Shown here piece after piece: positions 1 through 16,310 of a DNA stretch of 64,000 bases. The DNA lies in contig JBJMII010000102.1 in NCBI GenBank assembly GCA_045806925.1, positions 1,478-65,477 on the forward strand, in the 5' to 3' direction. The position numbers and the translations under genes are program-made. This DNA is from Mycobacteriales bacterium (lineage in GTDB: Bacteria > Actinomycetota > Actinomycetes > Mycobacteriales > CADCTP01). The notes below the pieces were generated by a model. That model searched no databases and was not told the DNA's origin. It saw only the letters and a list, made by a program, of their open reading frames with translations. Position 1 is the stretch's first letter. Every line of letters begins with the position of its first letter.

Positions 1-1
1 C

Positions 2-988
2 GGCGAGCCGCTGCCCGGCGAGCTGGCCCGGCGGGCCCGGGCGGCCACCGGCGCGGCGGTGCACAACATCTACGGGATGACCGAGTGCAACGTCGCGCTC
101 TGGTACGCCTGCCCGCCGGCGGCCCGCTTCGACACCGCACCGCTCGGCGAGCCGGTCGCCGGCCTGGACATCCGGCTGTCCGAAGTAGACAGCGGTGAGC
201 TGGTGGTGGCCGGCCGGCACGTGGCGCTGGAGTACGTCGGGGAGCCGGCGCTCACCGCGGCGCGCTTCTGCACTGTGGACGGCCGGCGCGCGTTCGCGAG
301 CCGGGACCTGGTCGCCCGCGGGCCGGACGGGCTGCGCTTCGGCGGCCGGTCGGACGACCGGGTCAAGGTCCGCGGCTACAGCGTGCAGCTCGGCGGCGTC
401 GAGGCCTGCCTGGCCGCGCACCCGGCGGTGCTGGAGTGCGCGGTGCTGGTCCGCGACCGCGGGGTGAGCGACCAGCGGCTGGAGGCGGTCGCCGTGCTGC
501 GCCGCCCGGTGCCGGTGCCCGAGCTGCAGGAGCACCTGCGCCGCGAGCTGCCGGACTACATGGTGCCCGGGGTGGTCCGGGTGCTGGACGCGCTGCCGCG
601 GCTGAGCAACGGCAAGCTCGACCGGCAGGGTCTGCTGGCCCTGCCGGAGCCGGTCGCCGAGCCGGCGGCGGCCGGCACCGACCGGGTGAGCGCCGACCGG
701 GTGAGCGCCGACCGGGTGAGCGCCGACTGGGTGAGCGAGGCGCGGGCGCTGCTGGCCGGCGTGCTCGGCATCCCGGTCGACCGGGTCGGGCCGGACGACG
801 ACTTCGCCGCGCTCGGCGGCCACAGCCTGCTGCTGCTCCGCCTCGGCGCCGAGATCGAGCGCCGGCACGGGGTGGCGGTCGAGATGGACGAGCTGCTGGA
901 GCGGCCGGCCGCCGCGCAGCTCGGCACCCTGCTCGCGGACCGCGCGGCCGGCGCGCCCGGCGGGACGGACGAGAGGACCGCGGTATGA
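2..988 (+). CDS. NRPS adenylation (C-terminal part) plus peptidyl-carrier (PCP) didomain protein; 5' end lies outside the window
   Basis: Frame-2 reading frame is open from the window edge. Motifs: NIYGMTEC (A5-like), GRSDDRVKVRGY (A8), LSNGKLDR (A10), then FAALGGHSLLLLRL (PCP Ser attachment motif). Stop TGA at 986-988. Confidence 0.85.
   Translation, partial: GEPLPGELARRARAATGAAVHNIYGMTECNVALWYACPPAARFDTAPLGEPVAGLDIRLSEVDSGELVVAGRHVALEYVGEPALTAARFCTVDGRRAFASRDLVARGPDGLRFGGRSDDRVKVRGYSVQLGGVEACLAAHPAVLECAVLVRDRGVSDQRLEAVAVLRRPVPVPELQEHLRRELPDYMVPGVVRVLDALPRLSNGKLDRQGLLALPEPVAEPAAAGTDRVSADRVSADRVSADWVSEARALLAGVLGIPVDRVGPDDDFAALGGHSLLLLRLGAEIERRHGVAVEMDELLERPAAAQLGTLLADRAAGAPGGTDERTAV
680..739 (+). 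repeat. 15-bp tandem repeat (gaccgggtgagcgcc: 3 perfect copies plus 1 imperfect) in the A-PCP linker, encoding DRVSA x3 plus DWVSE
   Basis: Counted directly: perfect units at 680-694, 695-709 and 710-724; degenerate unit at 725-739. Confidence 0.9.
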
Positions 989-1881
989 CCACCGGCACCT
1001 TGCCGAGGCTGACCGAGGCCGACCTGGAGCACTACGACCGGCACGGCTGGTGGCTGTCGCCGGAGCCGGTCTTCAGCGCGGCGGAGCTGGCCGCCGCCCG
1101 GGAGGCGGTGGCGGTGCTGCACCGGGACGGGGTGCCCGCGGGCGCGCCGGTGGCCGGCGCCAAGGCGCACCTGAACTGGAAGCCCGGCGACACCCCGGCC
1201 ATGCGGGCGAACAACTACGCCGCCTTCATCAGCCCGGCGCTGCGCCGGCTGGCCTGCCACCCGGCGGTCGGTGCGATCGCCGCGCAGCTGTCCCGCAGCC
1301 CGGTGATCCGGCTCTTCAACTCCACCCTGGTGCACAAGCCGGCGCAGCTGGCCGACGAGGCCAACTCGGTCGGCTGGCACACCGACAAGGCGTACTGGCC
1401 GGGTTGCACCTCGGACCGGATGCTGACCGCCTGGATCCCGCTGCACGATGTCGCCGCGGACGGCTCGCCGCTGACCGTGCTGGACGGCTCGCACCGCTGG
1501 CCGGAGCGGGAGGTCGCGGACCTGCGGACGGTGCGCGGCTTCGCCGCGAACGAGCGGCACCGGATGGAGGACGCGCTGCGCCGCCGCCAGGTGGACTTCC
1601 GGCCGGTGCCGCTGCCGATGCCGGCCGGGCACCTGTCCTTCCACCACTGCAGGACCTTCCACGGCAGCCCGCCCAACCGGTCGGACCGCCCCCGGCTGTC
1701 GCTGACCTCGCACCTGCAGGACGGCGACAACCGGTGGCGGCCGGCGCTGGACACCGACGGCACCCCGGTGCGCTACCAGCACGACGACAAGGTGCGGCGC
1801 ACCGCCGACGGCGAGCCGGACTACACCGACCCGCGGCTGTGCCCGGTGGTGTGGCCGGTCGAGGGCGCGGGCCAGGGGTGA
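985..1881 (+). CDS. Phytanoyl-CoA dioxygenase (PhyH) family Fe(II)/2-oxoglutarate oxygenase
   Basis: ATG 985 overlaps the upstream stop (ATGA). GWHTDKAY (HxD) and a downstream His (SFHHCRTFHGSPPNRS) fit the PhyH-type facial triad. About 298 aa. Confidence 0.75.
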   Translation: MTTGTLPRLTEADLEHYDRHGWWLSPEPVFSAAELAAAREAVAVLHRDGVPAGAPVAGAKAHLNWKPGDTPAMRANNYAAFISPALRRLACHPAVGAIAAQLSRSPVIRLFNSTLVHKPAQLADEANSVGWHTDKAYWPGCTSDRMLTAWIPLHDVAADGSPLTVLDGSHRWPEREVADLRTVRGFAANERHRMEDALRRRQVDFRPVPLPMPAGHLSFHHCRTFHGSPPNRSDRPRLSLTSHLQDGDNRWRPALDTDGTPVRYQHDDKVRRTADGEPDYTDPRLCPVVWPVEGAGQG

Positions 1882-2984
1882 CCGGAGGGCTGCCGGCCGT
1901 GCGGTCCGGCGACTTCCTGGGGGTGGGCCACCACGTGGCCCTGGTCGAGGGCGCGCCGGAGGCGGTGGCGGCGGCGGTCGCCGAGGCCGCGGCGGACCGG
2001 GAGCCGCTGCACGTCAGCGTGCACGCGGGTACGCCGGCCGAGCGGGACAAGGCCACCGCGGCGCTGCGGGAGGCCGGGATCCGCTGTGCGGTGGACGCGC
2101 TGGTGCAACCGCCGGCCGGGGCCGGCTGCGCGGCGGTGCTCTGGGCGGTGACCGGCGACGGCACGGTCCGCCACCCGGCGCCCGGGACCAGCCGGCTCGA
2201 CTTCGCCGGCGGCAGCCTGGTCCGGCTCGGCCACCTCGAGCCGGGGGCGGCGACCGGCTGGGCCGAGCTGACCGGCCGGCTGCGCGGGCTGGGCCTGGGC
2301 CTGGACCAGGTCTGGAAGACCTGGTCGTACCTGCCGGTGCGGCCGGGGCGGGAGGAGGCGGCCGCCGAGTTCGTCGCCTTCAACCTCGACCGGGCCGAGG
2401 TCTTCGGCGACACCACCTTCCGGCTGGAGCCGCCGGCGGTCGCCGACCGGGCGTACCCGGCGAACACCGGCGTCGCCGACCTGTCCGGCACCGGCACGCT
2501 GACCGGGATCGCCGGCCGGGCCGCCGGCGGCGTCCGCGTGCTCGGCGTGGAGAACCGCCGGCAGCGGCCGCCGCACCGGTACGGCCCGGGGACCGGCCGG
2601 CCGCGGCCGGCCCAGTTCTCCCGGGCGGTCCTGCTCGCCGGCCGCGGCCGGGGGTTGGCCCTGATGGCCGGCACCGCCGCGGTGGTGGAGTCCTCGACGG
2701 TCGGCACCGACGCCGCCGAGCAGCTGGACGTGACGCTCGGCATCGTCGACGGGCTGCTGTCCGCCGGCGCGGCCACCGCCGGCGGGCTCACCCTCGCCGG
2801 CGGGCTGGAGTCGCTGCTGCACCTCGTCGTCTACGTCGCCCGGGCCGGTGACCTGGACCGGGTGCGGCAGCGGGTCGCCGAGCGGGTGCCGGTCCCGGCG
2901 CTGACCGTGCTGGCCCCGCTGACCCGGGCCGACCTGCTGGTCGAGGTGGACGGGCTGGCGGTGGTCGAGGTGCGCGATGGTTGA
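1878..2984 (+). CDS. FkbO/Hyg5-like chorismatase (RidA/YjgF-fold C-terminal domain)
   Basis: GTG 1878 overlaps the upstream stop (GTGA). Segments VWKTWSYLP...FVAFNLDRAEVF, AYPANTGV and ENRRQRPPHRYGPG...AQFSRAV resemble my recollection of conserved FkbO/Hyg5/XanB2 blocks. Confidence 0.6.
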   Translation: MTGGLPAVRSGDFLGVGHHVALVEGAPEAVAAAVAEAAADREPLHVSVHAGTPAERDKATAALREAGIRCAVDALVQPPAGAGCAAVLWAVTGDGTVRHPAPGTSRLDFAGGSLVRLGHLEPGAATGWAELTGRLRGLGLGLDQVWKTWSYLPVRPGREEAAAEFVAFNLDRAEVFGDTTFRLEPPAVADRAYPANTGVADLSGTGTLTGIAGRAAGGVRVLGVENRRQRPPHRYGPGTGRPRPAQFSRAVLLAGRGRGLALMAGTAAVVESSTVGTDAAEQLDVTLGIVDGLLSAGAATAGGLTLAGGLESLLHLVVYVARAGDLDRVRQRVAERVPVPALTVLAPLTRADLLVEVDGLAVVEVRDG

Positions 2985-4227
2985 GCTGCTGCCGCTGGCC
3001 GCCGAGCAGCGCCTGCTGCTGGCCGGCGCGGCCCGGCAGGCGGCGCCGGTCTACACGATCAGCTACGGCTACCGGGTCATCGGCGACCTCGACGTCGGCC
3101 GGCTCGCCGCCGCCACCGGCCGGCTGGCCGCCGAGGTGCCGCTGCTGCGCGCCGCGTTCGAGGGCAGCCGGGTGCTGCCGACCGCGATGCGGGTGCTGCC
3201 GGAGCGGGAGGTCTTCGCCGACCACGGCGTGGTGGAGGACCCGGACGCGTTCGTCGCGGGGCTGGCCGGCCGCCGGGTGCGGCTGCTGCGGGACCCGCTC
3301 TTCCAGGTCGCGGTGGCCCGGCACGGCAGCGACCACGTCGCCTTCACGATGTGGCACCACGCGATCGCCGACGCGTGGTCGGTCGGGCTGTGCACGCGCT
3401 GGCTCGGCGAGCTGTACGCGGGCACCGGCGGGCCGCCGGAGGGTGCCCGGCGGTGGCCGGACTTCGTCGCGGACGAGGCGGCGGCGCTGGCCGCGACGGC
3501 CGACCCGGGCCGGTTCTGGGTGGACCAGCACCGGGACGCCCGCTTCGCCACGCTGGTGCCGGCGGTGCCGGCGGTGCCGGCGGTGCCGGCGGTGCCGGCG
3601 CCGCCGGCGGGCACGGCGGGCACCGTGCTGACCGAGGTGGCCGGCCCCGGCTTCCCGGCGCGGTGCCGGGCGGTGGGCGGCACTGCGGGCTCGGTGCTGC
3701 TCGCCGCCGCCGCGCTCGCCGCCGGCTTTCCGGACGGACCGGTCGCGCTGCCGACGATGCTGGCCAACCGCGAGCCGCCGTACGAGGAGACGGTCGGGCT
3801 GTTGATGCGGACCGCGCTGCTGCGCGCGGAGCCGCTCGGGTCGCAGCCGGCCGCCGAGCTGCGCCGCGGCATGCTGCGGCAGCTCGGCCGCTGCTGGCGG
3901 CACCGGCACGAGTCGCTGCTGCTGCTCGCGGAGCGGTCGCCGGCCGCCGCGGCGGAGCTGGCCGCCGGGCCGCCGCCGTTCTTCGCCCAGGTGCTCGACG
4001 TGCCCCGCCGGGAGCTGGTGCTGCCCGGCTGCAAGACCGAGCTGGTGCACCACGGCTTCGAGCGGACCACCCGCTTCGGGGTGGAGCTGCACCTGCGGCC
4101 GCTGGACGGCGGCGCCGTGCAGGGCGCGTTCGTGCACGACCTGGCGCGCTACCGCCGGGCGGACGTGGAGGACGCGGCGGTTCGCTACCGCGAGCTGGTC
4201 GACCAGCTCACCGAGGTCCGGCCGTGA
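2977..4227 (+). CDS. Stand-alone NRPS condensation (C) domain protein
   Basis: MWHHAIADAWS matches the HHxxxD(G) condensation motif. About 416 aa with no A or PCP domain. ATG 2977 overlaps the upstream stop by 8 nt. Confidence 0.75.
   Translation: MVELLPLAAEQRLLLAGAARQAAPVYTISYGYRVIGDLDVGRLAAATGRLAAEVPLLRAAFEGSRVLPTAMRVLPEREVFADHGVVEDPDAFVAGLAGRRVRLLRDPLFQVAVARHGSDHVAFTMWHHAIADAWSVGLCTRWLGELYAGTGGPPEGARRWPDFVADEAAALAATADPGRFWVDQHRDARFATLVPAVPAVPAVPAVPAPPAGTAGTVLTEVAGPGFPARCRAVGGTAGSVLLAAAALAAGFPDGPVALPTMLANREPPYEETVGLLMRTALLRAEPLGSQPAAELRRGMLRQLGRCWRHRHESLLLLAERSPAAAAELAAGPPPFFAQVLDVPRRELVLPGCKTELVHHGFERTTRFGVELHLRPLDGGAVQGAFVHDLARYRRADVEDAAVRYRELVDQLTEVRP
3556..3609 (+). repeat. 9-bp tandem repeat (gtgccggcg: 5 perfect copies plus 1 imperfect) encoding (VPA)5 inside the C-domain protein
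   Basis: Counted directly: 3556-3600 holds five identical units; 3601-3609 is ccgccggcg. Confidence 0.9.
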
Positions 4228-5830
4228 CCGGGCTGACGTACGCGGAGCTGATCCACGCCGCGTACCGGCGGTACGGCGACCGGCCCGCGTTCGTCTCGGT
4301 GTCCGGCGACCGGCTGACGTACCGGGCCTGCGGCGCGCTGCTGAACCGGCTGACCCGGGCGCTGCACGGCCGCGGGGTCCGGCGGGGGACCGGGGTGGCC
4401 TTCCTCAGCAGCAACCGGCCGGACCTGTCGCTGGCCGTCGCCGCGGTGCTCACCCTCGGCGGCCGGGTCAGCCTGCTGCCGCCGCTGGCCGGCCCGCAGC
4501 GGCTGGCGAGCATGCTGGAGCTGGCCGCGGTGGACGTGCTCGTGGTCGACCCGCTGCTGGCGCCGCTGCTGCCGGCGCTCACCCTGCCCGGCACCGTGCT
4601 CGGGCTCGGGCCGTCCGCGGCGCTGCGCGACCTGCTCGCCGAGGCCGACCAGCAGCCGGAGGCGCCGGTGGAGGTCCTGGCCCGGCCGGACGACCTCGCC
4701 TTCGTGCACTTCACCAGTGCCAGCACCGGCCCGGCCAAGGCGGTGACCGCCACCCAGGGCGCGAGCGCACTCGGCGCACTGCTGCTGGTCGCGAACGTCG
4801 AGTGGCCGGCCGAGACCCGCTTCCTGGCCTGCACCGGGGCGGCGCAGATCCTGCAGGTGCCGGTCCGGCTGCGCGGGGGCTGCGTGCACCTGCACAACGG
4901 CTTCGACCCGGACCGGGCCCGGGACACGATCCGTGCCGTAGGGATCACTGCCAGCTACCTCAGTCCACCGGCACTGCTCCAGCTGGCCCGCGGTGGTGGC
5001 CCGCTGCCGAGCCTGGAGAGCCTCTTCTACGCCGGCACGGTGGTGCCGCCGGCGCACCTGGACGAGGCGCTGGACACCCTCGGGCCGGTGCTGGTCCAGG
5101 CGTACTCGCAGGTCGAGGTCAACACCTGGGCGACCGCGCTGTCCCGGGCCGAGCACCGGACCGGGCCGCCGGGCAGCGCCGGCCGGCCGCTGCCCGGGTG
5201 GCCGTCTCGGTGCGGGACGACGCGGGACGGCCGGTGGAGCCGGGCACGGTCGGCGAGGTGTGCCTGCGCGGGCCGACGCTGACCCGCGGCTACTGGCGGG
5301 ACCCGGCGGCCACCGGCGCGGCCTTCCGGGACGGCTGGCTGCGGACCGGCGACGACGGCGCGCTGGACGGCGACGGCCACCTGCACCTGCTCGGCCGGCG
5401 CTCCGACCGGCTCGCCGACGGGCTGTGGGCGCGGCAGCTGGAGGACCCGGTGTGCGGGCACCCGGAGGTGGCGGACGCGGCCGCGGTGACCGGCCCCGCG
5501 GGCGAGCCGGTGGTCACCGTGGTGCCCCGTCCCGGCGCGCGGGTGGACGAGGCCTCGCTGCGGCGGCTGCTGCCGGCCGGGGTCACCGGCGTGCGTTTCC
5601 GGCCGGTGCCGTCGCTGCCGGTCGCGCCGAGCGGCAAGCTGGACCGGGCGGCCGTACGGGCGGCCGTGCTGGCCGAGCGGGCCGTGCCGGCCGGGGGAGC
5701 CGGGCTGGTCGGGCTGGCCGGGGGAGCCGGGCTGGTCGGGGGAGCGGGGCTGGTCGGGGGAGCGGGGCTGGCCGGGGGAGCGGGGCTGGTCGGGGGAGCG
5801 GGGACCGAGGCGGCGGAGGTGCTGCAGTGA
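4224..5830 (+). pseudogene. Acyl-/aryl-CoA (AMP-forming) ligase, interrupted by a single-nucleotide frameshift near 5196-5198
   Basis: GTG 4224 overlaps the upstream stop (GTGA). Frame 3 carries FTSASTGPAKAV (A3-like). After GSAGRPLPG the homology continues in frame 2 (VAVSVRDDAGRPVEPGTVGEVCLRGPTLTRGYW, WLRTGDDG, APSGKLDR). The total length of 1607 nt is not a multiple of 3. Adding one G to the ggg run at 5196-5198 restores a single ORF. Confidence 0.8.
5693..5803 (+). repeat. About 18-bp tandem repeat (gggggagc[c/g]gggctggtc) encoding the (GGAGLV)n C-terminal tail of the ligase
   Basis: Units at 5693-5710, 5720-5737, 5738-5755, 5756-5773 and 5774-5791, plus partial copies. The translated tail reads GGAGLVGLAGGAGLVGGAGLVGGAGLAGGAGLVGGAG. 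Confidence 0.85.
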
Positions 5831-6834
5831 CCGGCGCGATCGTGACCAGCGAGCCGGTCCGCGGCGGCTTCCCGTCCCCGGCCGTGCTCGGCCTGCCCGG
5901 CTGGCAGCAGATCGCCTCGTACGGCACCGAGCTGCTGCCCCGCTCGCCGCTGAGCCGGCTGCTCGGGCTGACCGTGGCGGGTGCCGAGCTGGGCCGGGCC
6001 AGCTACCGGCTGCCGCTGACGCCGTGGCTGCGCGACGGCGACGGCCGGGTGTCTCCCGCCGTGGTCGCGATCGCCGCGGACGCCGCGCTGGCCGGCGGGG
6101 TGGTCAGCGGCCTGTCGCCCGGGCACGCCCGGATCGCCACCGTCGACCTGTCCCTGCACCACCTCGATGCGGACCTGGACGGCCTGCTCGCGGCCGGCGA
6201 GGGACTGGTCGCGACCGGCTGGCCGTGCGGGCCGGCCGGTCCCGGGCTGGTGCTGGCCGAGCTGGAGGTGACCGCCGACTCCGGCCGGCCGGTGGCCCGC
6301 GGGCTCGGGCACTGCCTGGTCCTCCCGCCGCTGGACCCGCTGCCGCCGGCCCCGCCGTCGCCGGAGCGGCCGGAGCCGCCGGAGCTCGCGACCGGCGACC
6401 CGACCCCGGACCCGTACCAGCGGCCGCTGGACGACGAGGCTCGGGCGGTCGGCCCGCTGACCCGGCTGCTCGGCCTGGCGACCGGTGCGGGGACCTGCAC
6501 GATGCCGGCGACCGGGTGGCTGTGCCCGACCGCGCGGGCCATCCAGGGCGGGTCGCTGGTGATGCTCGGCCAGCTCGCCGCCGAGCGGGCCGCAGCCGGG
6601 GAGCTGGGCCGGCCGGCCGCCGTCACCCAGGTGACCGCCTCGTTCGTGCGGATGGTCTTCCCCCGGGACGCGCTGCTGACCGCGCGGGCCACCGCGACCC
6701 GGCACAGCCGCAACCTGGCCACCGCCGCGGTGGAGCTCACCGACGAGGCCGGCCGGGCGCTGGTCGAGCTGGCCGCGACCTGCTACGACATGTCTCCCGC
6801 CGGACCACCGCCGCCCCCGTACGGTCCCGGTTGA
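5827..6834 (+). CDS. Tandem (double) hotdog-fold thioesterase, PaaI/4HBT-like
   Basis: GTG 5827 overlaps the upstream stop (GTGA). Two PaaI-like halves (LLGLTV...ASYRLPL... and LLGLATG...CTMPATGW...IQGGSLVML) are joined by a Pro-rich linker. Confidence 0.6.
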   Translation: MTGAIVTSEPVRGGFPSPAVLGLPGWQQIASYGTELLPRSPLSRLLGLTVAGAELGRASYRLPLTPWLRDGDGRVSPAVVAIAADAALAGGVVSGLSPGHARIATVDLSLHHLDADLDGLLAAGEGLVATGWPCGPAGPGLVLAELEVTADSGRPVARGLGHCLVLPPLDPLPPAPPSPERPEPPELATGDPTPDPYQRPLDDEARAVGPLTRLLGLATGAGTCTMPATGWLCPTARAIQGGSLVMLGQLAAERAAAGELGRPAAVTQVTASFVRMVFPRDALLTARATATRHSRNLATAAVELTDEAGRALVELAATCYDMSPAGPPPPPYGPG

Positions 6835-6866: not shown

Positions 6867-7655
6867 ATGGACAATGGAGCGACGTCCTCACCCATCCTGG
6901 TCACCGGTGGCACCGGCACGCTGGGACGCCAGGTGGTGCCCCGGCTGCGGGAGGCGGGCCGGGCGGTGCGCGTGCTCAGCCGGAAGAGCCACCAGCCCGA
7001 GGACGGCATCGAGTACCTGACCGGCGACCTGCTCGAGGGCGTGGGCATCGCGCCGGCGGTGTCCGGCGTGCAGACCGTCCTGCACCTGGCCGGCAGCCGT
7101 AAGGGCGACGACCGGGCCACCCGGAACCTGGTGCAGGCCGCGTCGCAGGCCGGGGTGCGGCACCTGGTCTACATCTCGGTCATCGGGGCGGACCGGGTCC
7201 CGCTGGGTTACTTCCGGTCCAAACTCGGCGCGGAGCAGGCGGTGACCGGGTCCGGCGTGCCGTGGACCACGCTGCGGGCCGCCCAGTTCCACGACTTGGT
7301 CCTGACCGTGACGCGGTCGATGTCGAAGCTGCCGGTGATACCGGTCCCGAGTGGGATCCGGTTCCAGCCGGTCGATTCGGGCGAGGTCGCGGACCGGCTG
7401 GTGGAGCTGACACTCGGCCCGCCGGCCGGCCTGGTGCCCGACCTGGCCGGGCCGAAGGTGTCCGAGATGCGCGAGCTGGTCCGCGGATACCTGCAGGCCC
7501 GCGGCAAGCACCGCATGCTGCTGCCGGTGCGGCTCCCCGGGAAGGCCGGCCGGGCGCTCCGGGCCGGCGGGAACCTACCGCTCGACGCGAGCCTGGGTCA
7601 GCGGAGCTGGGAGGACTTCCTCGCCGAGCGGCTGTCCCAGGACGCGGCCCGCTAG
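6867..7655 (+). CDS. NAD(P)H-binding NmrA-like / atypical SDR protein
   Basis: ILVTGGTGTLGRQV Rossmann motif at the N-terminus. 262 aa. Confidence 0.75.
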   Translation: MDNGATSSPILVTGGTGTLGRQVVPRLREAGRAVRVLSRKSHQPEDGIEYLTGDLLEGVGIAPAVSGVQTVLHLAGSRKGDDRATRNLVQAASQAGVRHLVYISVIGADRVPLGYFRSKLGAEQAVTGSGVPWTTLRAAQFHDLVLTVTRSMSKLPVIPVPSGIRFQPVDSGEVADRLVELTLGPPAGLVPDLAGPKVSEMRELVRGYLQARGKHRMLLPVRLPGKAGRALRAGGNLPLDASLGQRSWEDFLAERLSQDAAR

Positions 7656-7839: not shown

Positions 7840-10155
7840 ATGACGAAGGTCAGGCGCACGGTAACCGTCGCCGCGGTCGCCCTGATGGTGGGTTCGCTGG
7901 CCGGTGGCGGGGTGCTCGCCGCCGGCCAGTCCAGCGACGAGGCGGCGCTCGCTGCCACCCGGCTCGCACCGAGCCAGGCGGTGGAGCAGCGGGTCTCGGC
8001 GCTGCTGGACCGGATGACCGTCGAGGAGAAGCTCCAGCAGGTCCAGCTGCTGGCCGACTGGCAGGCCACCGACGCGGAGGCCAGGGCCGGGGTGGGCGGC
8101 GTCTTCAGCCTGGTGGACCCGGTCCGGATCAACCAGCTGCAGCACATCGCCGTCGAGCAGTCCCGGCTGCACATCCCGATCCTGTTCGCCTTCGACACCA
8201 TCCACGGCTACCGGACGGTCTTCCCGGTGCCGCTCGGCGCGGCCAGCTCGTTCGACCCGTCGGTGGCCCAGACCGACGCCGTCATCGGCGCGCGGGAGTC
8301 CGCGACCGTGGGTATCAAGCAGGTCTACAGCCCGATGGTGGACGTCTCGCACGAGCCGCGCTGGGGTCGGATCGCCGAGGCCGCCGGGGAGGACCCGTAC
8401 CTGGGCTCCGTCCTCGCCGCCGCGCGGGTGAAGGGCGACCAGGGCAGCAGCTATGCCGCAGCGGACAAGGTGGTGGCGAGCGTCAAGCACTACGCCGCGT
8501 ACGGGCAGCCCGAGGGCGGCCGCGACTACAACACCACCGACATGTCCGAGCAGCGGCTGCGCAACCTCTACCTGCCGCCGTACAAGGCCGCCGTGGACGC
8601 CGGCGCGGACACCGCGATGTGCTCCTTCAACGCGGTCAACGGCGTGCCCGGCTGCGCGAACGCGCACCTGGAGACCGGCATCCTCAAGCAGGAGTGGGGT
8701 TTCGACGGCTTCATCGAGAGCGACTACACGGCGGTCGCCGAGCTGCGGGCGTGCCCGCCCGTCCAGCCGAACGACGGCCCGTGCGGGCACGGCGTCGCGG
8801 CGGACGGCCCGTCGGCCGGCGCGCTGGCGCTCAACGCCGGCACCGACTCGGAGATGGTCAGCACGAACATCCGCGACTTCGGCAGGCAGCTGCTCGCCGA
8901 CGGCCGGATCCCGACGTCCCGGTTGGACGACGCGGTGCGGCGGATCCTGCGGGTCAAGTTCCGCGCCGGCCTCTTCGACCACCCGTACGTCGACGTGGCC
9001 AAGGCGCAGGACCCGGCCAGCTTCGTCACCCCGGCCGACCGGGCCGCCGCCCGGAAGGCCGCCGGCAGGTCCACGGTCCTGCTGAAGAACGGCGGCGCCG
9101 TGCTCCCACTCGACCCCGCCCGCAGGACCGCCGTGATCGGGCCGCTCGGGGACGACCAGCACGACATGCTCGGCCCGTGGTGGGGGCAGGGCCGGGACGC
9201 CGACGCGGTCAGCCTCTACACCGGGATCAAGGCTCAGTCGCCCTCGGCGACCTTCACCCAGGGGTGCACCCGGCGCAACCTGGAGCCGCCGGAGGCCCGG
9301 GACGACGACGCGTGCAGCGGGCTCGACGTCGCCGCGGTCACGGCGGCGTCGAACGCGGCCGACCAGGTCGTGCTCGCGCTCGGCGAGACCCGGGAGATGA
9401 GCGGCGAGGCGGCCGCCCGGACCACGATCGACCTGCCCGGCCAGCAGCAGGCGCTGATCGACGCGGTCAAGGCGACCGGCAAGCCGTTCGCGGTGGTGCT
9501 GTTCAACGGCCGCCCGCTGACGCTAGCCCCGGTGGCCGCGTCGTCGCCGGCGATCCTGGAGGCCTGGTTCCCCGGCGTCGAGGCCGGCAACGCGGTCGCC
9601 GACGTGGTCTTCGGGAAGGTCAACCCGGGCGGCAAGCTGCCGGTCTCGTTCCCGCGGGTGATCGGCCAGGTGCCGGTCTACTACAACCACGAGCCGACCG
9701 GCCGCCCGTGCGACGTGGCCCAGAAGTGGAACTCGCGCTACCGCGACCTCGCCGCGTGCGACCCGCTCTACGGCTTCGGGTACGGGCTGAGCTACACCAC
9801 CTTCTCCGTCTCGAACCTCCGGCTGGACCGGACCCGCGTCGGCCCGAACGGGCGGGTCACCGCGTCGGTGGACGTCACCAACACCGGGACCCGCGCCGGT
9901 GACGAGGTCGTGCAGCTCTACCTGCACGACCCGGTCGCCAGCATTTCCCAGCCGGTGCGCCGGCTGCGTGGCTTCGAGCGGGTGACGCTGACGCCGGGAG
10001 CCACCCGGACGGTCAGCTTCACCCTGGACCGGAGCGACTTCGGGTTCTACGACAACAGCGGTGGCTTCGTGGTCGAGCCGGGCCGGATCGACCTCTACGC
10101 CGGCAACTCCTCGACGGCCACGCTGGCCACCTCGTTCACCGTCACCGGCGGCTGA
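7840..10155 (+). CDS. bglX: Secreted glycoside hydrolase family 3 beta-glucosidase (BglX-like)
   Basis: ATG 7840 is preceded by GAGGAG. The N-terminus MTKVRRTVTVAAVALMVGSLAGG looks like a signal peptide. Typical GH3 blocks are present (KHYAAYG, GFDGFIESDY, the FGYGLSYTTF region). 771 aa. Confidence 0.85.
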   Translation: MTKVRRTVTVAAVALMVGSLAGGGVLAAGQSSDEAALAATRLAPSQAVEQRVSALLDRMTVEEKLQQVQLLADWQATDAEARAGVGGVFSLVDPVRINQLQHIAVEQSRLHIPILFAFDTIHGYRTVFPVPLGAASSFDPSVAQTDAVIGARESATVGIKQVYSPMVDVSHEPRWGRIAEAAGEDPYLGSVLAAARVKGDQGSSYAAADKVVASVKHYAAYGQPEGGRDYNTTDMSEQRLRNLYLPPYKAAVDAGADTAMCSFNAVNGVPGCANAHLETGILKQEWGFDGFIESDYTAVAELRACPPVQPNDGPCGHGVAADGPSAGALALNAGTDSEMVSTNIRDFGRQLLADGRIPTSRLDDAVRRILRVKFRAGLFDHPYVDVAKAQDPASFVTPADRAAARKAAGRSTVLLKNGGAVLPLDPARRTAVIGPLGDDQHDMLGPWWGQGRDADAVSLYTGIKAQSPSATFTQGCTRRNLEPPEARDDDACSGLDVAAVTAASNAADQVVLALGETREMSGEAAARTTIDLPGQQQALIDAVKATGKPFAVVLFNGRPLTLAPVAASSPAILEAWFPGVEAGNAVADVVFGKVNPGGKLPVSFPRVIGQVPVYYNHEPTGRPCDVAQKWNSRYRDLAACDPLYGFGYGLSYTTFSVSNLRLDRTRVGPNGRVTASVDVTNTGTRAGDEVVQLYLHDPVASISQPVRRLRGFERVTLTPGATRTVSFTLDRSDFGFYDNSGGFVVEPGRIDLYAGNSSTATLATSFTVTGG

Positions 10156-11740: not shown

Positions 11741-13444
11741 TCAGGGCAGAGCGGCCGCGAACGTGCGGCGCTGTCGCTCCCGCCAGCTGCCCGGCTCGTA
11801 GTAGCGCTCGGTCCAGGTGTCGTCCTCGGTGAGGCGCCCGCCCTTGCTGCCGGCGGCAGGGTCGGCGTCCCGGGCGGCCCAGTCGCGGAACACGAAGTGC
11901 GTGAACAGCCGCTGGTACTCGGTCAGGTAGACGTCCGCGACCCGGCGGGCCGCGCGGTCGCCGGCGTCGGTGCCGTCGGGCCGGACCAGGATCGTGTTCT
12001 CCTCGTTGTCGGTGGTGGAGTTGTCGGAGTAGTTCGCCGACCCGGTCAGGGTGGTCGGGGAGCCGGTGAGCGGGTCGACCATGATGATCTTGGTGTGGAT
12101 GAACTTGACCCAGCTGTTGAAGCCGGTCAGGTGCTCGGCGGCCCACCGGTCGAACGCGACGTGGTGCAGGTAGTCCCCCCAGGACGTGCGGACGTCGGCA
12201 TCGACCTGAGGGATGCCCTGGCCCGGGTCGGGCGGCTGGTCGAGGAGCACGGTGCGGACCACGTCACGGTCGACGCCGAGCTTGTCCCGGAAGACCTTGT
12301 TGATACCGAAGGCGCCGGTGATGTGGGCGCTGGAGGTGGCGCTGTCGAAGATGCCGGCGTACCAGTCCAGCAGCCTGCTCCGGGTCGCCCGCGGCGACAG
12401 CACGGTGGTGAGGCCGGCCGGCGGCGCGGCCGCGGTGTCGACCGGGTTGTGGGCCTCGTCCCAGGTCCGCATCCGGGCCGTGGTGTTCTGCTGGTCGGCG
12501 AGCTGGGTCCAGTAGTCCAGGAAGCTGGCGGCGACGGCCGGGTCGGTGGTCTGGTGGCCCACGTTGAGGTGGCCGAACACCCCGCCCTGGGTGAGGTTGG
12601 TCGACCCGGTCCACACCGCGACCGGGTCGCCGCCCCGGGTCAGCACGAGGAACTTGTTGTGCTGCAGGGCGCCCCTGTTGGCCGCCGTCCGCCAGGTCAC
12701 CAGGCCGTCGAGGCCGGCGGCGCCGACCGCCGCGCGGTTGTCCTCGGCGGTGGTGTCCTTGTCCTTCCCGCCGGCCGGGTCCTTGTCCCGGCCGTGCACG
12801 ACCAGCGAGACGTCCGCGCCGGCGGCCGCGGCGCCGGCCAGCGCCCGCAGCCCGGTCTGCCAGGTGAACTCGTAGAACGCGCCGCGCAGCCCCCAACCCG
12901 GCCCGGTGGCGCGCTGCACGAACCGGACGAACGCCTCGCCCAGGCCACGCGACAGCCAACCGAACGCCGGATGGTCCTCGCCGGCGCCGGCCGGCGGCGT
13001 GAACTGGCCGAACCGCTTGACGAACGCCTGCGAGCCGGCGACGCCCCGGTTGAACCAGATGCCGTGCCGGCCGTCGTCCTCGGCCTCGCACCGGACGTCC
13101 ACAGTGGTCTCGGCCAGCGGGACCAGCGCACCCGGGGCGCCGCCCCAGGCGACCACCCGGTAGCGGTAGTCGTGCTCCGGCTTGGCCGTGTAGTCGCCCC
13201 ACTGGAAGCCCTGCACCGGGTGGTCGCGCAGCGAGAAGTCCATCCCCGGCCCGGGCTGCGGCACGACGCTCGCGAACACCTTCAGCCCGCGCAGCCAGTA
13301 CGCCTCGTTCTCGGTGCGGTCGGTCCGGTGGATCCCGAACCCCAGGCATCCCGCGGGCGCCGCCAGGTCCCAGCCCAGCAGCACCGTGTGGGTGCCCGCG
13401 GTCACCCGCACCGAGAGGCCGTCGTTGGCTTCGAATGCCCTCAC
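11741..13444 (-). CDS. Phospholipase D-like (HKD superfamily) protein with an N-terminal beta-rich domain
   Basis: Two HKD-type motifs: ALQHNKFLVL...GSTNLT and FIHTKIIMVD...GSANYS. Start GTG 13444 (VRAFEANDG) is preceded by a G-rich stretch. The long upstream in-frame extension in the ORF track lies antisense to kup and is rejected. Confidence 0.7.
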   Translation of the reverse strand: MRAFEANDGLSVRVTAGTHTVLLGWDLAAPAGCLGFGIHRTDRTENEAYWLRGLKVFASVVPQPGPGMDFSLRDHPVQGFQWGDYTAKPEHDYRYRVVAWGGAPGALVPLAETTVDVRCEAEDDGRHGIWFNRGVAGSQAFVKRFGQFTPPAGAGEDHPAFGWLSRGLGEAFVRFVQRATGPGWGLRGAFYEFTWQTGLRALAGAAAAGADVSLVVHGRDKDPAGGKDKDTTAEDNRAAVGAAGLDGLVTWRTAANRGALQHNKFLVLTRGGDPVAVWTGSTNLTQGGVFGHLNVGHQTTDPAVAASFLDYWTQLADQQNTTARMRTWDEAHNPVDTAAAPPAGLTTVLSPRATRSRLLDWYAGIFDSATSSAHITGAFGINKVFRDKLGVDRDVVRTVLLDQPPDPGQGIPQVDADVRTSWGDYLHHVAFDRWAAEHLTGFNSWVKFIHTKIIMVDPLTGSPTTLTGSANYSDNSTTDNEENTILVRPDGTDAGDRAARRVADVYLTEYQRLFTHFVFRDWAARDADPAAGSKGGRLTEDDTWTERYYEPGSWRERQRRTFAAALP

Positions 13445-13548
13445 CGCGCACCCCCCGGGACGCCGACAGTCGATCACACCATAGCCACCCGGAGCCGGAC
13501 CCGGTGGGCGTTCGGCGACGTCCGACAGCTGTCCGACGTCGAAGGGCG

Positions 13549-15537
13549 TCAGATGTCGACGGTGCTGCCCATCACCACCGTGCGGTCCCGCGGCAGGGTG
13601 AAACGCTCGGCCGGGTCGGCGGCGTTGTGGGCCATGCCGATGAACAGGGCCTTGCGCCAGCGGCTCATCCCGGGTGCGTCGGTACGCCGCAGCGAGCCGC
13701 GGGAGACGAAGTAGGACGTGCGGTCGAGGTCGATGTCGCCCTCGATCTCCTCGGAGCGGGCGGCCTGGGCCAGCGCCGACGGGATGTCGGGGGTGTCGTA
13801 GAAGCCGTGCCGGACGGTGAGGTGGACGATGCCGTCGTTGGCATAGCCGAGGTCGTCGACGGTCAGCTGCTGGTCCGCCGGCACGTGCGGCACGCTGCGT
13901 CCCTGCAGCGAGACGATCACCACGTGCTCGTGCAGGACGTGGTTGTGCTGGACGTTCGCCCGCAGCGCCAGCGGGGTGGTGTCCTTGCCCGGGTGCGGGA
14001 AGACCCCGGTGCCGGGCACCCGCGGCAGCCGCTGCCCGCGGACGTCGTCGATGAAGTCGCCCAGCGGGCCCTCGATCTTCCTCCGCCGCTCCAGCACGAT
14101 CTCCCGGCCCCGCCGCCACGTCGTCATCAGCAGGAAGACCAGCGACGCGATCAGCAGCGGCAGCCAGGCGCCGTGCGCGATCTTGGTCAGGTTCGCGGAG
14201 AAGAACAGCAGCTCGGTGCCGCCGAAGGCGACCCCGGCGAGGGCGAGCTGCCACCCCGCCCAGTGCCACATCGCCCGCGCCACCACCAGCAGCAGGATCG
14301 TGTCCACCAGCAGGGCACCGGTGACCGCGATCCCGTACGCGGTGGCGAGCCGGGCCGAGGACCGGAAGCTGAGGATGAGCACGAGCACGCCGGCGAACAG
14401 CGCCCAGTTCACCGCCGGCAGGTAGACCTGGCCCTCCTCGTGCTCGGAGGTCTGCCGGACCCGCAGCGGCGGCAGCAGTCCCAGCTGGGCCGCCTGCCGG
14501 GACACCGAGAAGGCGCCGGAGATGACCGCCTGGGACGCGATGACGGTGGCGGCGGTGGCGAGCACCACCATCGGGATGCGGGCCCACCCTGGCAGCAGCA
14601 GGAAGAACGGGCTGGCGACCGAGCCGGGGCTGTGCAGGATCAGCGAGCCCTGGCCCAGGTAGTTCAGCGTCAGCGCCGGGAAGACCACGGCGAACCAGGC
14701 CCGCCGGATCGGCGGCCGGCCGAAGTGGCCCATGTCGGCGTACAGCGCCTCCGCCCCGGTGATGCACAGCACGACCGCGCCCAGCGCGATGAACGCCACG
14801 TACGGGTGGGAGAAGACGAAGGCGACCGCGTACGTCGGCGACAGCGCCCGCAGCACTCCCGGGTCGGGTACGAGCTGGCGCAGCCCGGCCAGCGCGAGCG
14901 CCGCGAACCAGGCGAGCATCACCGGACCGAACAGCGACCCGATCCGGCTGGTGCCCCAGCGCTGGCCCGCGAACAGCACGGCGAGGATGGTCACCGCGAC
15001 CGGGACGACCAGGTGCTCCAGGCCCGGCGCGGCGACCTTGAGACCCTCCACCGCGGACAGCACCGAGATGGCCGGGGTGATCATCGAGTCCCCGTAGAAC
15101 AGCGACGCGCCGACCACCGCGAGCAGGATGGCCGAGGTGCTGGCCCGCGGGGTGTGGCGCAGCGCCCGCCGGGCGAGCGCGGCCAGCGCCATCACGCCGC
15201 CCTCGCCGGAGTTGTCCGCCCGCATGACGATGCTGACGTACTTGACCGAGACGATCAGGGTCACCGACCAGAAGACCAGGGAGAGCACGCCGTAGACGTC
15301 GCCCGGGGTCGGCTGGACCTTGTTGTGGTCGAGGGAGAAGACCGTCTGCAGCGCGTACAGCGGGCTGGTCCCGATGTCGCCGAAGACGACCCCGAGCGCG
15401 GCCAGCAGCAGCGCCGCGCCGGCCCGGTGCGCCGGCGCCGCTGTCCGTTCGGCGGACTCCGTCGGGGGCGGCGGCGTGGCGGTGGACACCAGGGTGTCTT
15501 CCCCGCCTCGGCGGCGGGCGACACGGCCCCGGCTCAC
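13549..15537 (-). CDS. kup: KUP/HAK/KT family potassium uptake transporter
   Basis: [16 protein letters not shown] plus a polytopic membrane profile. 662 aa. GTG 15537 overlaps the TetR stop (GTGA). Confidence 0.9.
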
Positions 15538-16310
15538 GCTTCGCCTGACCCCGGCCGGGGCCGGACGCGCCGATCACCCGGGGTGGGAGGCGCGCCGGTA
15601 GCCGTCCGCCGGCGTCGGCGGCCCGGGACCGGTCCTGCTGGCCCGGGCTGTCCGGCCGCGTCGTGGGCGCGGGCGAGCCCGTCGAGGACGAGGTCGAGGC
15701 CGAAGAGGAACTCCTCGCCGTAGTCGTACCCGGGCTTCAGGGCGTGCTCGGCGATGAGCTCGGCGAGCCGCGGGTACGCCTCGGCCGGCTGGTGCTCGAG
15801 GATCGTCCCGGCCACCTCGACGAGCTCGTCCGTGTTCTGGAAGGGCAGGCTCGCCTCCTGCATGGCGAAGCCGTAGATGTAGCTGTCCAGCAGGGAGAAG
15901 GCGTGCGCGGCCAGCTCGAGGGAGAAGCCGGCTTCGCGGAGGATGCCGAGCACGCCGTCGTGGTGCCGCAGCGTCGCCGGCCCCGGGGAGGCTCGCGACT
16001 CCATCAGGACGGTCGCCCAGGGGTGGCGGCGCAGCGCCTCCCGGGCCGAGACCGCCCGCCGGCGCATGGCGGCCCGCCAGTCGGCCTCGTCGAGCGGCAG
16101 CTCGATCTCGGCGAAGACGGCGTCCACGATGCCGTCCAGGATGGCGTCCTTGCTGGCCACGTGGTGGTAGAGCGACATCGCCTCCACGCCGAGCTCCTGG
16201 GCGAGCTTGCGCATGCTCAGCGACCCGACGCCGCCGCGGTCGGCCAGGGCGACCGCGGCGCGCAGCACCCGCTGCCTGCTCAGCGGGCTCCGGGCCGCCG
16301 GCTCGGCCAT
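15534..16310 (-). CDS. TetR family transcriptional regulator (tetracycline-repressor-like C-terminal domain)
   Basis: N-terminal [40 protein letters not shown] before ATG 16310. Translationally coupled to kup. Confidence 0.85.

Follow-up and report, generated by a model that had tools for sequence, protein, structure and literature searches.

Which aromatic building blocks reach siderophores, antibiotics and quinones is set by enzymes at the chorismate/isochorismate branch point. For the chorismatases characterised so far, chorismate is the substrate described, and operons resembling those of nonribosomal peptide synthetases (NRPSs) with a chorismate-family starter enzyme are already known. 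The 2,3-dihydroxybenzoate (2,3-DHB) arm of enterobactin and vibriobactin biosynthesis comprises EntC, EntB, EntA, EntE, VibH and EntH. Here we analyse a 64,000-nucleotide stretch of contig JBJMII010000102.1 from a Mycobacteriales bacterium (hereafter the window), at the left edge of which six genes, G1 to G6, form an operon around a divergent chorismatase-like gene, G3. FkbO (CH-I), Hyg5 (CH-II) and XanB2 (CH-III), the TIGR04444 family model and the PDB structures 4bps, 5a3k and 5ag3 served as chorismatase references.

2 to 988, plus strand: G1, C-terminal part of an adenylation (A) domain and a peptidyl carrier protein (PCP), running off the left edge
985 to 1881, plus strand: G2, PhyH-family Fe(II)/2-oxoglutarate oxygenase
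1878 to 2984, plus strand: G3, divergent chorismatase-fold enzyme, 368 aa
2977 to 4227, plus strand: G4, free-standing condensation (C) domain, 416 aa
4224 to 5830, plus strand: G5, gene of the ANL superfamily resembling acyl/aryl-CoA ligases, broken by a frameshift
5827 to 6834, plus strand: G6, double-hotdog thioesterase-like protein, 335 aa

Relatives of this operon point to a cassette whose predicted core combines a free C domain, an A-PCP protein and a PhyH oxygenase with isochorismate synthase (ICS), a divergent enzyme of the chorismatase fold and a protein for product release. We read the segment analysed here as the last 6.8 kb, at the 3′ end, of a small operon that depends on a carrier protein and belongs to this rare, conserved cassette, and give this reading, together with the pathway proposed below, an even chance. 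Neither a chorismatase homologue coupled to ICS nor such a gene set was described in any paper retrieved by full-text literature searches.

A rare clade of chorismatase-fold enzymes

The predicted structure of the G3 product identifies it as a divergent chorismatase-fold enzyme with a chorismatase-type catalytic glutamate. It has no Pfam match and matches neither PF01042 nor TIGR00004, and its score against TIGR04444 is 79.3 bits (E 3e-22; cutoff 325), with the alignment covering profile positions 96-310 only, the C-terminal two thirds of the model; ten relatives score 56-167 bits. A phmmer search of the PDB retrieved Hyg5 (5a3k, 5ag3) and FkbO (4bps) at E values of 1e-13 to 1e-15, at a sequence identity of only 20-23%. 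In the AlphaFold 2 (AF2) model (pLDDT 87, pTM 0.90) three RidA-like domains are predicted to lie in one chain as a pseudo-trimer fold. Foldseek ranked 5a3k, 5ag3 and 4bps at the top for this model (about 350 columns, E 1e-14, TM 0.6-0.68), and single-domain RidA structures covered one third of it (E 1e-4). A preliminary description, made from the letters of the window alone, had called the gene an FkbO/Hyg5-like chorismatase. The fold and the catalytic glutamate bear this out, membership of the curated family does not, and G3 forms a separate clade; the product is nonetheless chorismatase-like rather than a generic RidA protein, since Hyg5 and FkbO are the only structures that match it over its full length and the essential Glu is present.

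Residue-level comparison gives the same mixed picture. Glu334 of Hyg5 is the essential proton donor, and mutation of the equivalent residue abolished in vivo production (PMC7170507); E356 of G3, in PLTRADLLVE (2916-2945), aligns with this residue and with Glu338 of FkbO and is invariant across the clade. The subfamily signature residues of Hyg5 are G173, G240 and C327, corresponding to G164, G231 and C318 of Nat-Hyg5 (PMC7170507). G198 of G3, in PANTGV (2457-2474), corresponds to G173, G265, in AGTAAVV (2667-2687), to G240, and T349, replaced by Ser in a few clade members, to C327. The last two positions are Gly and Cys in Hyg5 and Ala and Ala in FkbO, so that two of the three G3 residues are Hyg5-like and the third fits neither pattern. 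The Asn in PANTG is invariant in, and specific to, the G3 clade.

Sequence searches indicate that the clade is very rare and stands apart from the TIGR04444 family. Across 5.8 billion clusters, a single-sequence search with G3 gave 22 matches and a clade-profile search 26 matches at E <=1e-30; a scan of 185,579 species genomes yielded two loci, both in metagenome-assembled genomes (MAGs). Scores in an exhaustive profile search drop steeply at the edge of the clade, from >200 bits to about 180 bits. No intact G3 copy was found in any cultured organism; cultured strains are represented solely by a truncated 204-aa relic on the chromosome of Solwaraspora sp. WMMB335 (L093, 10001-10615), which lacks the cassette and lies between insertion sequence (IS) element genes beside a type I polyketide synthase (PKS) region.

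Pairing with isochorismate synthase

Nine distinct lineages of the G3 clade, including that of the window, were recovered with flanking DNA (39-78% GC) and cross-checked by tblastn. The gene orders of the relatives are listed below, where SDR denotes a short-chain dehydrogenase/reductase and FAAL a fatty acyl-AMP ligase.

L010-12, 39% GC: C, A-PCP, PhyH, ICS-like, G3, SDR
L008/9, 58% GC: C, A-PCP, PhyH, ICS-like, G3, SDR, then HlyD-like and ATP-binding cassette (ABC) export genes
L004/5, 69% GC: SDR (divergent), A-PCP, PhyH, ICS, G3, C
L094 and L003/L007, 76% GC (L003/L007): FAAL (divergent), A-PCP, PhyH, ICS, G3, C, G5, hotdog
L013, 78% GC: contig begins in PhyH; PhyH, ICS, G3, C, G5, hotdog
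L001, 77% GC: FAAL (divergent), PCP, PhyH, G3, C, hotdog
L006, 68% GC: PhyH fragment, A, G3-like

An ICS gene lies directly upstream of G3 in six of the nine lineages, and in most of these the two genes overlap, stop codon on start codon. The PhyH-ICS-G3 block is accompanied by A-PCP and C genes in L003/L007, L094, L004/5, L008/9 and L010-12; in L013, where the contig is cut off upstream of PhyH, the A-PCP gene is not seen. The cassette ICS scores 236 bits against TIGR00543 (cutoff 224.75) and retains the lysine of KVVL(A/S)R, the equivalent of which activates water in MenF and EntC. None of 78 generic chorismatase-superfamily loci from metagenomes had ICS, PhyH, A-PCP or C neighbours. Because ICS stands immediately upstream of G3 in two thirds of the lineages, the gene order favours isochorismate over chorismate as the substrate that the clade originally used.

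The relatives' FAAL matches NF006624 at 290 bits. In L094 (1-555 and 552-2198), an AurF-like diiron-oxidase gene and a gene for an 87-aa acyl carrier protein (ACP) converge on the divergent FAAL gene and may constitute an extra lipid-tailoring sub-cluster.

Loss of ICS from the window

No ICS was detected by tblastn anywhere in the 64 kb, and yet both of the nearest relatives by G3 identity, L094 (82%) and L013 (80%), carry one. The junction between G2 and G3 retains the trace of a clean in-frame deletion.

1878 to 1904, plus strand: in-frame ICS deletion scar, in which GTG ACC GGA equals the ICS start in L094

In this scar GTG ACC GGA, now the first three codons of G3, is followed by four linker codons and then by the ancestral V-R-S start of G3. 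Positions 1700-1886 of the window align with 4795-4984 of L094, and 1844-2100 with 6132-6387; an ICS gene of about 1.15 kb fills that gap in L094, L013 and L007. By this alignment, the ICS gene of the window was removed by an in-frame deletion. L001, whose G3 is 24% divergent, is collinear with the window across the ICS-less junction. We propose that the cassette has persisted without its own ICS, because the ICS-less form is common to the window and L001 and the ratio of nonsynonymous to synonymous substitution rates (dN/dS) is 0.3-0.6, a value inflated by extreme GC content at third codon positions (GC3) and undecided between function and decay.

A close relative, represented by three contigs of a metagenome in the European Nucleotide Archive (ENA), shows a further, different deletion: it carries a chimeric open reading frame (ORF), P0015, in which 57 codons of ICS are followed by G3 as far as AGTAAVV and then by the Fn3-like C-terminus of a glycoside hydrolase family 3 (GH3) gene. 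This ORF is equivalent to window positions of about 1878-2711 joined to 9856-10146, with the GH3 part 94% identical to 9856-10146, so that G4 to G6 and the catalytic end of G3, which is kept to residue ~270, have been lost. The arrangement implies a deletion of about 7 kb and an independent in-frame deletion within ICS. As read from these sequences, the G5 frameshift, the loss of ICS and the P0015 deletion show erosion of the cassette in the lineage of the window, and the window copy itself may be eroding.

Adenylation, oxygenase and condensation proteins

G1 contains the C-terminal part of an AMP-binding domain, AMP-binding_C and PP-binding domains by Pfam and NCBIfam, with the motifs NIYGMTE (A5, 65-85), NGKLDR (A10, 608-625) and, in the PCP, GGHSL (815-829). 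Orthologues of 582-608 aa indicate that about 0.8 kb of the gene is missing, and identity is 74% to the A-PCP of L007 and 53% to that of L004. The cassette A domain scores 268 bits against TIGR01733 (cutoff 317), and the motifs FTS(V/I)(L/I)RQ, SFFPS, GGEPL and N(V/I)YGMTECN are conserved across cassettes, as is the GGHSL of the PCP. In a HMMER alignment of the five full-length orthologues, the Thr of FTS(V/I)(L/I)RQ aligns with Asp235 of LgrA, the residue of the FDxS motif that in amino-acid-activating domains binds the alpha-amino group. The approximate specificity code, T-S-R-S-(H/L)-G-(V/I)-V-A-K, is not known to correspond to any substrate. Because Thr replaces Asp235 in the orthologues, this A domain more likely loads a ring acid than an amino acid, and the amino-acid loader proposed in the preliminary description is disfavoured, every full-length orthologue having the replacement. 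L001 has lost its A domain.

G2 scores 87.5 bits against PF05721 (cutoff 22). Its metal-binding triad, formed by WHTD (HxD, 1375-1386) and the distal His in FHGS (1657-1668), is conserved in all cassettes and is by sequence hydroxylase-type rather than halogenase-type; among PDB entries the protein is nearest to SnoN and SnoK. G4 scores 37.8 bits against PF00668 (cutoff 30.6) and has the active-site motif HHAIAD (HHxxxD, 3355-3372), within WHHAIADAWS in six of seven orthologues and WHHAI(A/V)DAWS across cassettes. Its PDB matches are the C domains of Txo1, Txo2 and TycC, with VibH marginal (E 0.006). The carrier protein dependence implied by the earlier label of an NRPS-type operon is thus upheld, with A-PCP and C domain confirmed.

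Three of the cluster genes contain in-frame tandem repeats: 15 nt x 4 in the A-PCP linker (678-737; DRVSA repeats), 9 nt x 7 in G4 (3555-3619; PAV repeats) and 18 nt x 5 in the C-terminal tail of G5 (5710-5803; GAGLVG repeats).

Probable release enzymes

By sequence G6 gave only weak, sub-threshold matches to 4HBT, 4HBT_3 and TIGR00369 (20.6 against a cutoff of 24.3 and 21.6 against 36.6). Its halves, at residues of about 40-166 and 200-320, align with each other and resemble PaaI and DHNA-CoA thioesterase. An AF2 model built from 14 homologues (pLDDT 83) matched the double hotdogs TesB, FatA and ACOT in Foldseek over about 300 columns (E ~1e-10), a structural prediction that confirms the double-hotdog fold.

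For the stand-alone SDRs of the related cassettes the top Pfam family is NAD_binding_4 (102-123 bits), to which acyl-thioester reductases belong; sequence matches in the PDB are weak and mixed, and their designation as thioester-reductase-like follows the Pfam match. In the deeper lineages the SDR takes the slot held by the hotdog in the window, and because the NAD_binding_4 reductase and the hotdog share this slot, both are putative release enzymes. The arrangement suggests that the C domain acts with the intermediate still on the carrier. The actinobacterial subclade has the hotdog and, in four of five loci, the extra ligase G5.

A probably accessory, frameshifted ligase

Positions 4224-5830 had been presented as a single ORF, which they are not: the interval of 1607 nt is not a multiple of three, the frame opened at 4224 runs into a stop at 5282, and a different frame, ending at 5830, encodes the C-terminal half.

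About 5196 to 5199, plus strand: one nucleotide missing from a run of Gs, CCCGGGTGG in the window against CCCGGGGTGG or CCCGGCGTGG in orthologues

Four orthologues read CCCGG(G/C)GTGG when aligned with the window, which is one base short. Insertion of one G restores a 535-aa ligase that scores 184 bits against PF00501 (AMP-binding) and has the core motifs, and the part past the frameshift is about 82% identical to its orthologues in the corrected frame. On this comparison the gene was either inactivated very recently or misassembled at the homopolymer. Such interruptions differ between two long-read MAG loci that are otherwise nearly identical: G5 is split in L007 (12323-13818) and intact in L003, and FAAL is split in L003 (4404-6027) and intact in L007. 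Because these frameshifts are different and unshared, frameshifts in such assemblies are likely often errors. G5 is intact in L094, L013 and L003 and missing from L001, L004, L008 and L010. As it is absent from most cassettes and frameshifted here, we regard it as accessory and not, as first proposed, as the core aryl-acid ligase.

Operon layout and borders

The first 8 kb of the window have a GC content of about 77%. The six plus-strand genes are joined by five start/stop overlaps, as the preliminary description had stated (ATGA at 985, GTGA at 1878, 8 nt at 2977-2984, GTGA at 4224 and GTGA at 5827), and its domain calls were recovered by Pfam and NCBIfam for A-PCP, PhyH, free C and ANL ligase and by fold for the double hotdog. 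Such overlaps are frequent in high-GC actinobacterial operons and by themselves unremarkable. Orthologous loci, L094 and L007 among them, show the same overlaps of 4, 4, 8, 4 and 4 nt, and the compact layout is therefore conserved.

The frame of G1 is open to the left edge, which agrees with the statement that its 5′ part lies outside the window. The further claim that the cluster continues upstream holds insofar as this frame is open leftward, but synteny gives only a few kb more; by comparison with the relatives, the extension is probably the remaining ~0.8 kb of the A-PCP gene followed by a divergent FAAL gene. On the right we place the border at 6834, because the genes 3′ of G6 (NmrA-like, GH3 glucosidase, DinB, PLD-like protein, TetR regulator and alcohol dehydrogenase (ADH)) are unrelated.

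The NmrA-like gene (6867-7655, plus strand), an atypical SDR with a NAD_binding_10 match, was considered as a member of the cassette and rejected, being neither orthologous to the cassette SDR nor conserved downstream in the relatives. It is on the same strand as G6 and starts 32 nt past it, and co-transcription is possible. A promoter and terminator scan gave no sites and is uninformative at 77% GC. Further downstream, a 1278-aa stop-to-stop ORF (11744-15577, minus strand) has a PLD-like domain near its C-terminus as its sole Pfam match, and only over about 13549-15573 is GC3 high enough to suggest a coding sequence.

Proposed pathway

The analysis shows the chorismatase fold and catalytic Glu of G3, partner proteins whose motifs all look competent, and a conserved cassette. 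Based on these features, G3 would protonate and remove the enolpyruvyl side chain of isochorismate with release of pyruvate. By analogy with FkbO, hydrolysis would give 2,3-dihydro-2,3-dihydroxybenzoate; by analogy with Hyg5, elimination via an arene oxide would give salicylate or 3-hydroxybenzoate (3-HBA). The window copy, lacking ICS, might draw isochorismate from menaquinone metabolism or use chorismate itself. The A domain, to judge from its Thr235 pocket, would adenylate the G3-derived acid and load its own PCP, on which the PhyH enzyme may hydroxylate or desaturate it. The C domain would then acylate or condense the acid, the partner being perhaps a fatty acyl group that the divergent FAAL supplies or, alternatively, a soluble amine in a VibH-like amidation. 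Release would be hydrolytic here, with G6 cleaving the thioester, and reductive in SDR-bearing lineages. We give about even odds to this scheme, in which the PCP receives an acid derived from isochorismate or chorismate that then undergoes oxidation, acylation or condensation, and release. The operon probably makes a small molecule from isochorismate rather than an N-aroyl amino acid; the earlier scheme for the latter, built on chorismate, G5 as aryl ligase and an amino-acid-specific A-PCP, is not favoured in view of the ICS pairing, Thr235 and the accessory nature of G5.

Alternative explanations

It is rather improbable that G3 is an ordinary FkbO/Hyg5-type chorismatase whose product, 3- or 4-hydroxybenzoate or a dihydroxycyclohexadiene carboxylate (DCDC), is activated by G5 as aryl ligase and built into an N-aroyl amino acid that the PhyH enzyme hydroxylates. 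Its fold and catalytic Glu, the lack of ICS within 64 kb and the presence of a second adenylating enzyme (G5) with a C domain would all be expected of such a system, but G3 reaches just 79 of 325 bits against TIGR04444, its Gly/Gly/Thr signature fits neither subfamily, ICS stands upstream in L094 and L013 with a deletion scar in the window, the A-PCP orthologues lack Asp235, and G5 is absent from four of the related loci and frameshifted here. Still less probable is a non-canonical catecholate arm leading to a small 2,3-DHB-amide siderophore, in which ICS makes isochorismate, G3 replaces the EntB isochorismatase, PhyH or SDR replaces EntA, the A-PCP serves as EntE plus aryl carrier protein (ArCP), the free-standing C domain forms an amide with a soluble amine and the hotdog proofreads like EntH. 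The parts do correspond one to one (ICS, enolpyruvyl cleaver, oxidant, aryl loader with carrier, free C, hotdog), and HlyD-like and ABC export genes lie behind L008. Against this, there are no siderophore uptake or reductase genes near the window cluster, the A domain is NRPS-type and not EntE-like, the VibH match is marginal, release by the C domain would leave an R-type reductase or a thioesterase without a task, and an aromatising desaturation by PhyH is speculative. We give next to no credence to a RidA/YjgF-type enamine/imine deaminase without a link to chorismate chemistry: some homologues are labelled 'enamine deaminase RidA' by JGI and the fold is built of RidA-like domains, but that family (PF01042/TIGR00004) consists of single domains of ~125 aa and goes unmatched by G3, a 368-aa three-domain monomer that has the chorismatase Glu and motifs of FkbO/Hyg5 and a gene coupled to ICS.

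The window copy could also be the remnant of an eroding, no longer functional cassette, which we consider unlikely, if the most serious of these alternatives. Consistent with decay are the ICS deletion and 1-nt G5 frameshift, the loss of G4 to G6 and the catalytic end of G3 in the close relative that carries P0015, with its 94% identical GH3 neighbour, the Solwaraspora relic beside IS elements, the missing A domain of L001 and the dN/dS of 0.3-0.6. However, G1 to G4 and G6 are intact with all clade-invariant residues and overlaps kept, the ~82% identity beyond the G5 frameshift means that this lesion arose very recently or stems from misassembly of the homopolymer, different and unshared frameshifts occur in other MAG assemblies (L007 G5, L003 FAAL), and the ICS-less form is common to lineages 24% apart. 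Several points nevertheless weigh against a working, isochorismate-based cassette. Three of the nine lineages (window, L001 and L006) have no nearby ICS, which leaves chorismate a possible substrate, and gene adjacency is the sole ground for the substrate assignment. Thr235 is taken for the window from its orthologues, the pocket lying outside the window; one carrier with a C domain and a separate release enzyme is unusual; dN/dS is not low; and G5 is frameshifted here, with most of the cassette lost in the close relative that carries P0015.

Significance and comparison with known systems

Tentatively, and at somewhat below even chances, we suggest that the G3 clade comprises the first isochorismate-specialised chorismatase-fold enzymes, which would replace EntB/PhzD isochorismatases or PchB lyases, and that the six-gene cassette leads to an undescribed carrier-bound isochorismate-derived metabolite. 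If this is true, the ICS-adjacent clade extends the chorismatase fold to a further substrate, if not to a new reaction, and a new small-molecule family would be accessible through a cassette compact enough for synthesis. As metagenomes are the only source of the cassette, except for the one truncated relic in a cultured strain, culture-based work would miss it.

Like the characterised chorismatases, G3 has a full-length three-domain RidA-like fold, a C-terminal R.DLLVE..G with the essential Glu, the motifs W.(T/F)W(N/S), PA.TG, EN..Q, F(A/S)RA, (S/A)GTA and VYV, and a gene placed in a natural-product operon beside an adenylating enzyme. It differs from them in its 20-23% identity, its score of 79 against 325 bits, its Gly/Gly/Thr signature and the invariant Asn in PANTG, and in that most of its relatives are coupled to ICS, a pairing not reported for characterised chorismatases in the literature searched.

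With the enterobactin/vibriobactin arm the cassette shares ICS as first step, the removal of the enolpyruvyl group, adenylation of the acid and its attachment to a carrier protein, a C domain that stands alone, and a hotdog thioesterase. Unlike that arm, it has neither an isochorismatase-family (EntB/PhzD) domain nor an EntA-type SDR, its loader is an NRPS-type A-PCP and not a stand-alone EntE-like enzyme, PhyH is invariant, an R-type reductase appears in the deeper lineages, and no iron-uptake genes are adjacent. L008 and L010-12, with C and A-PCP, a NAD_binding_4 reductase and a single carrier, also resemble split C/A-T/R modules of the myxochelin MxcG type and the R domain of myxalamid MxaA. 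However, the domains of the cassette are separate proteins, its A domain lacks Asp235, and the window has a double hotdog and an extra ligase instead of the reductase.

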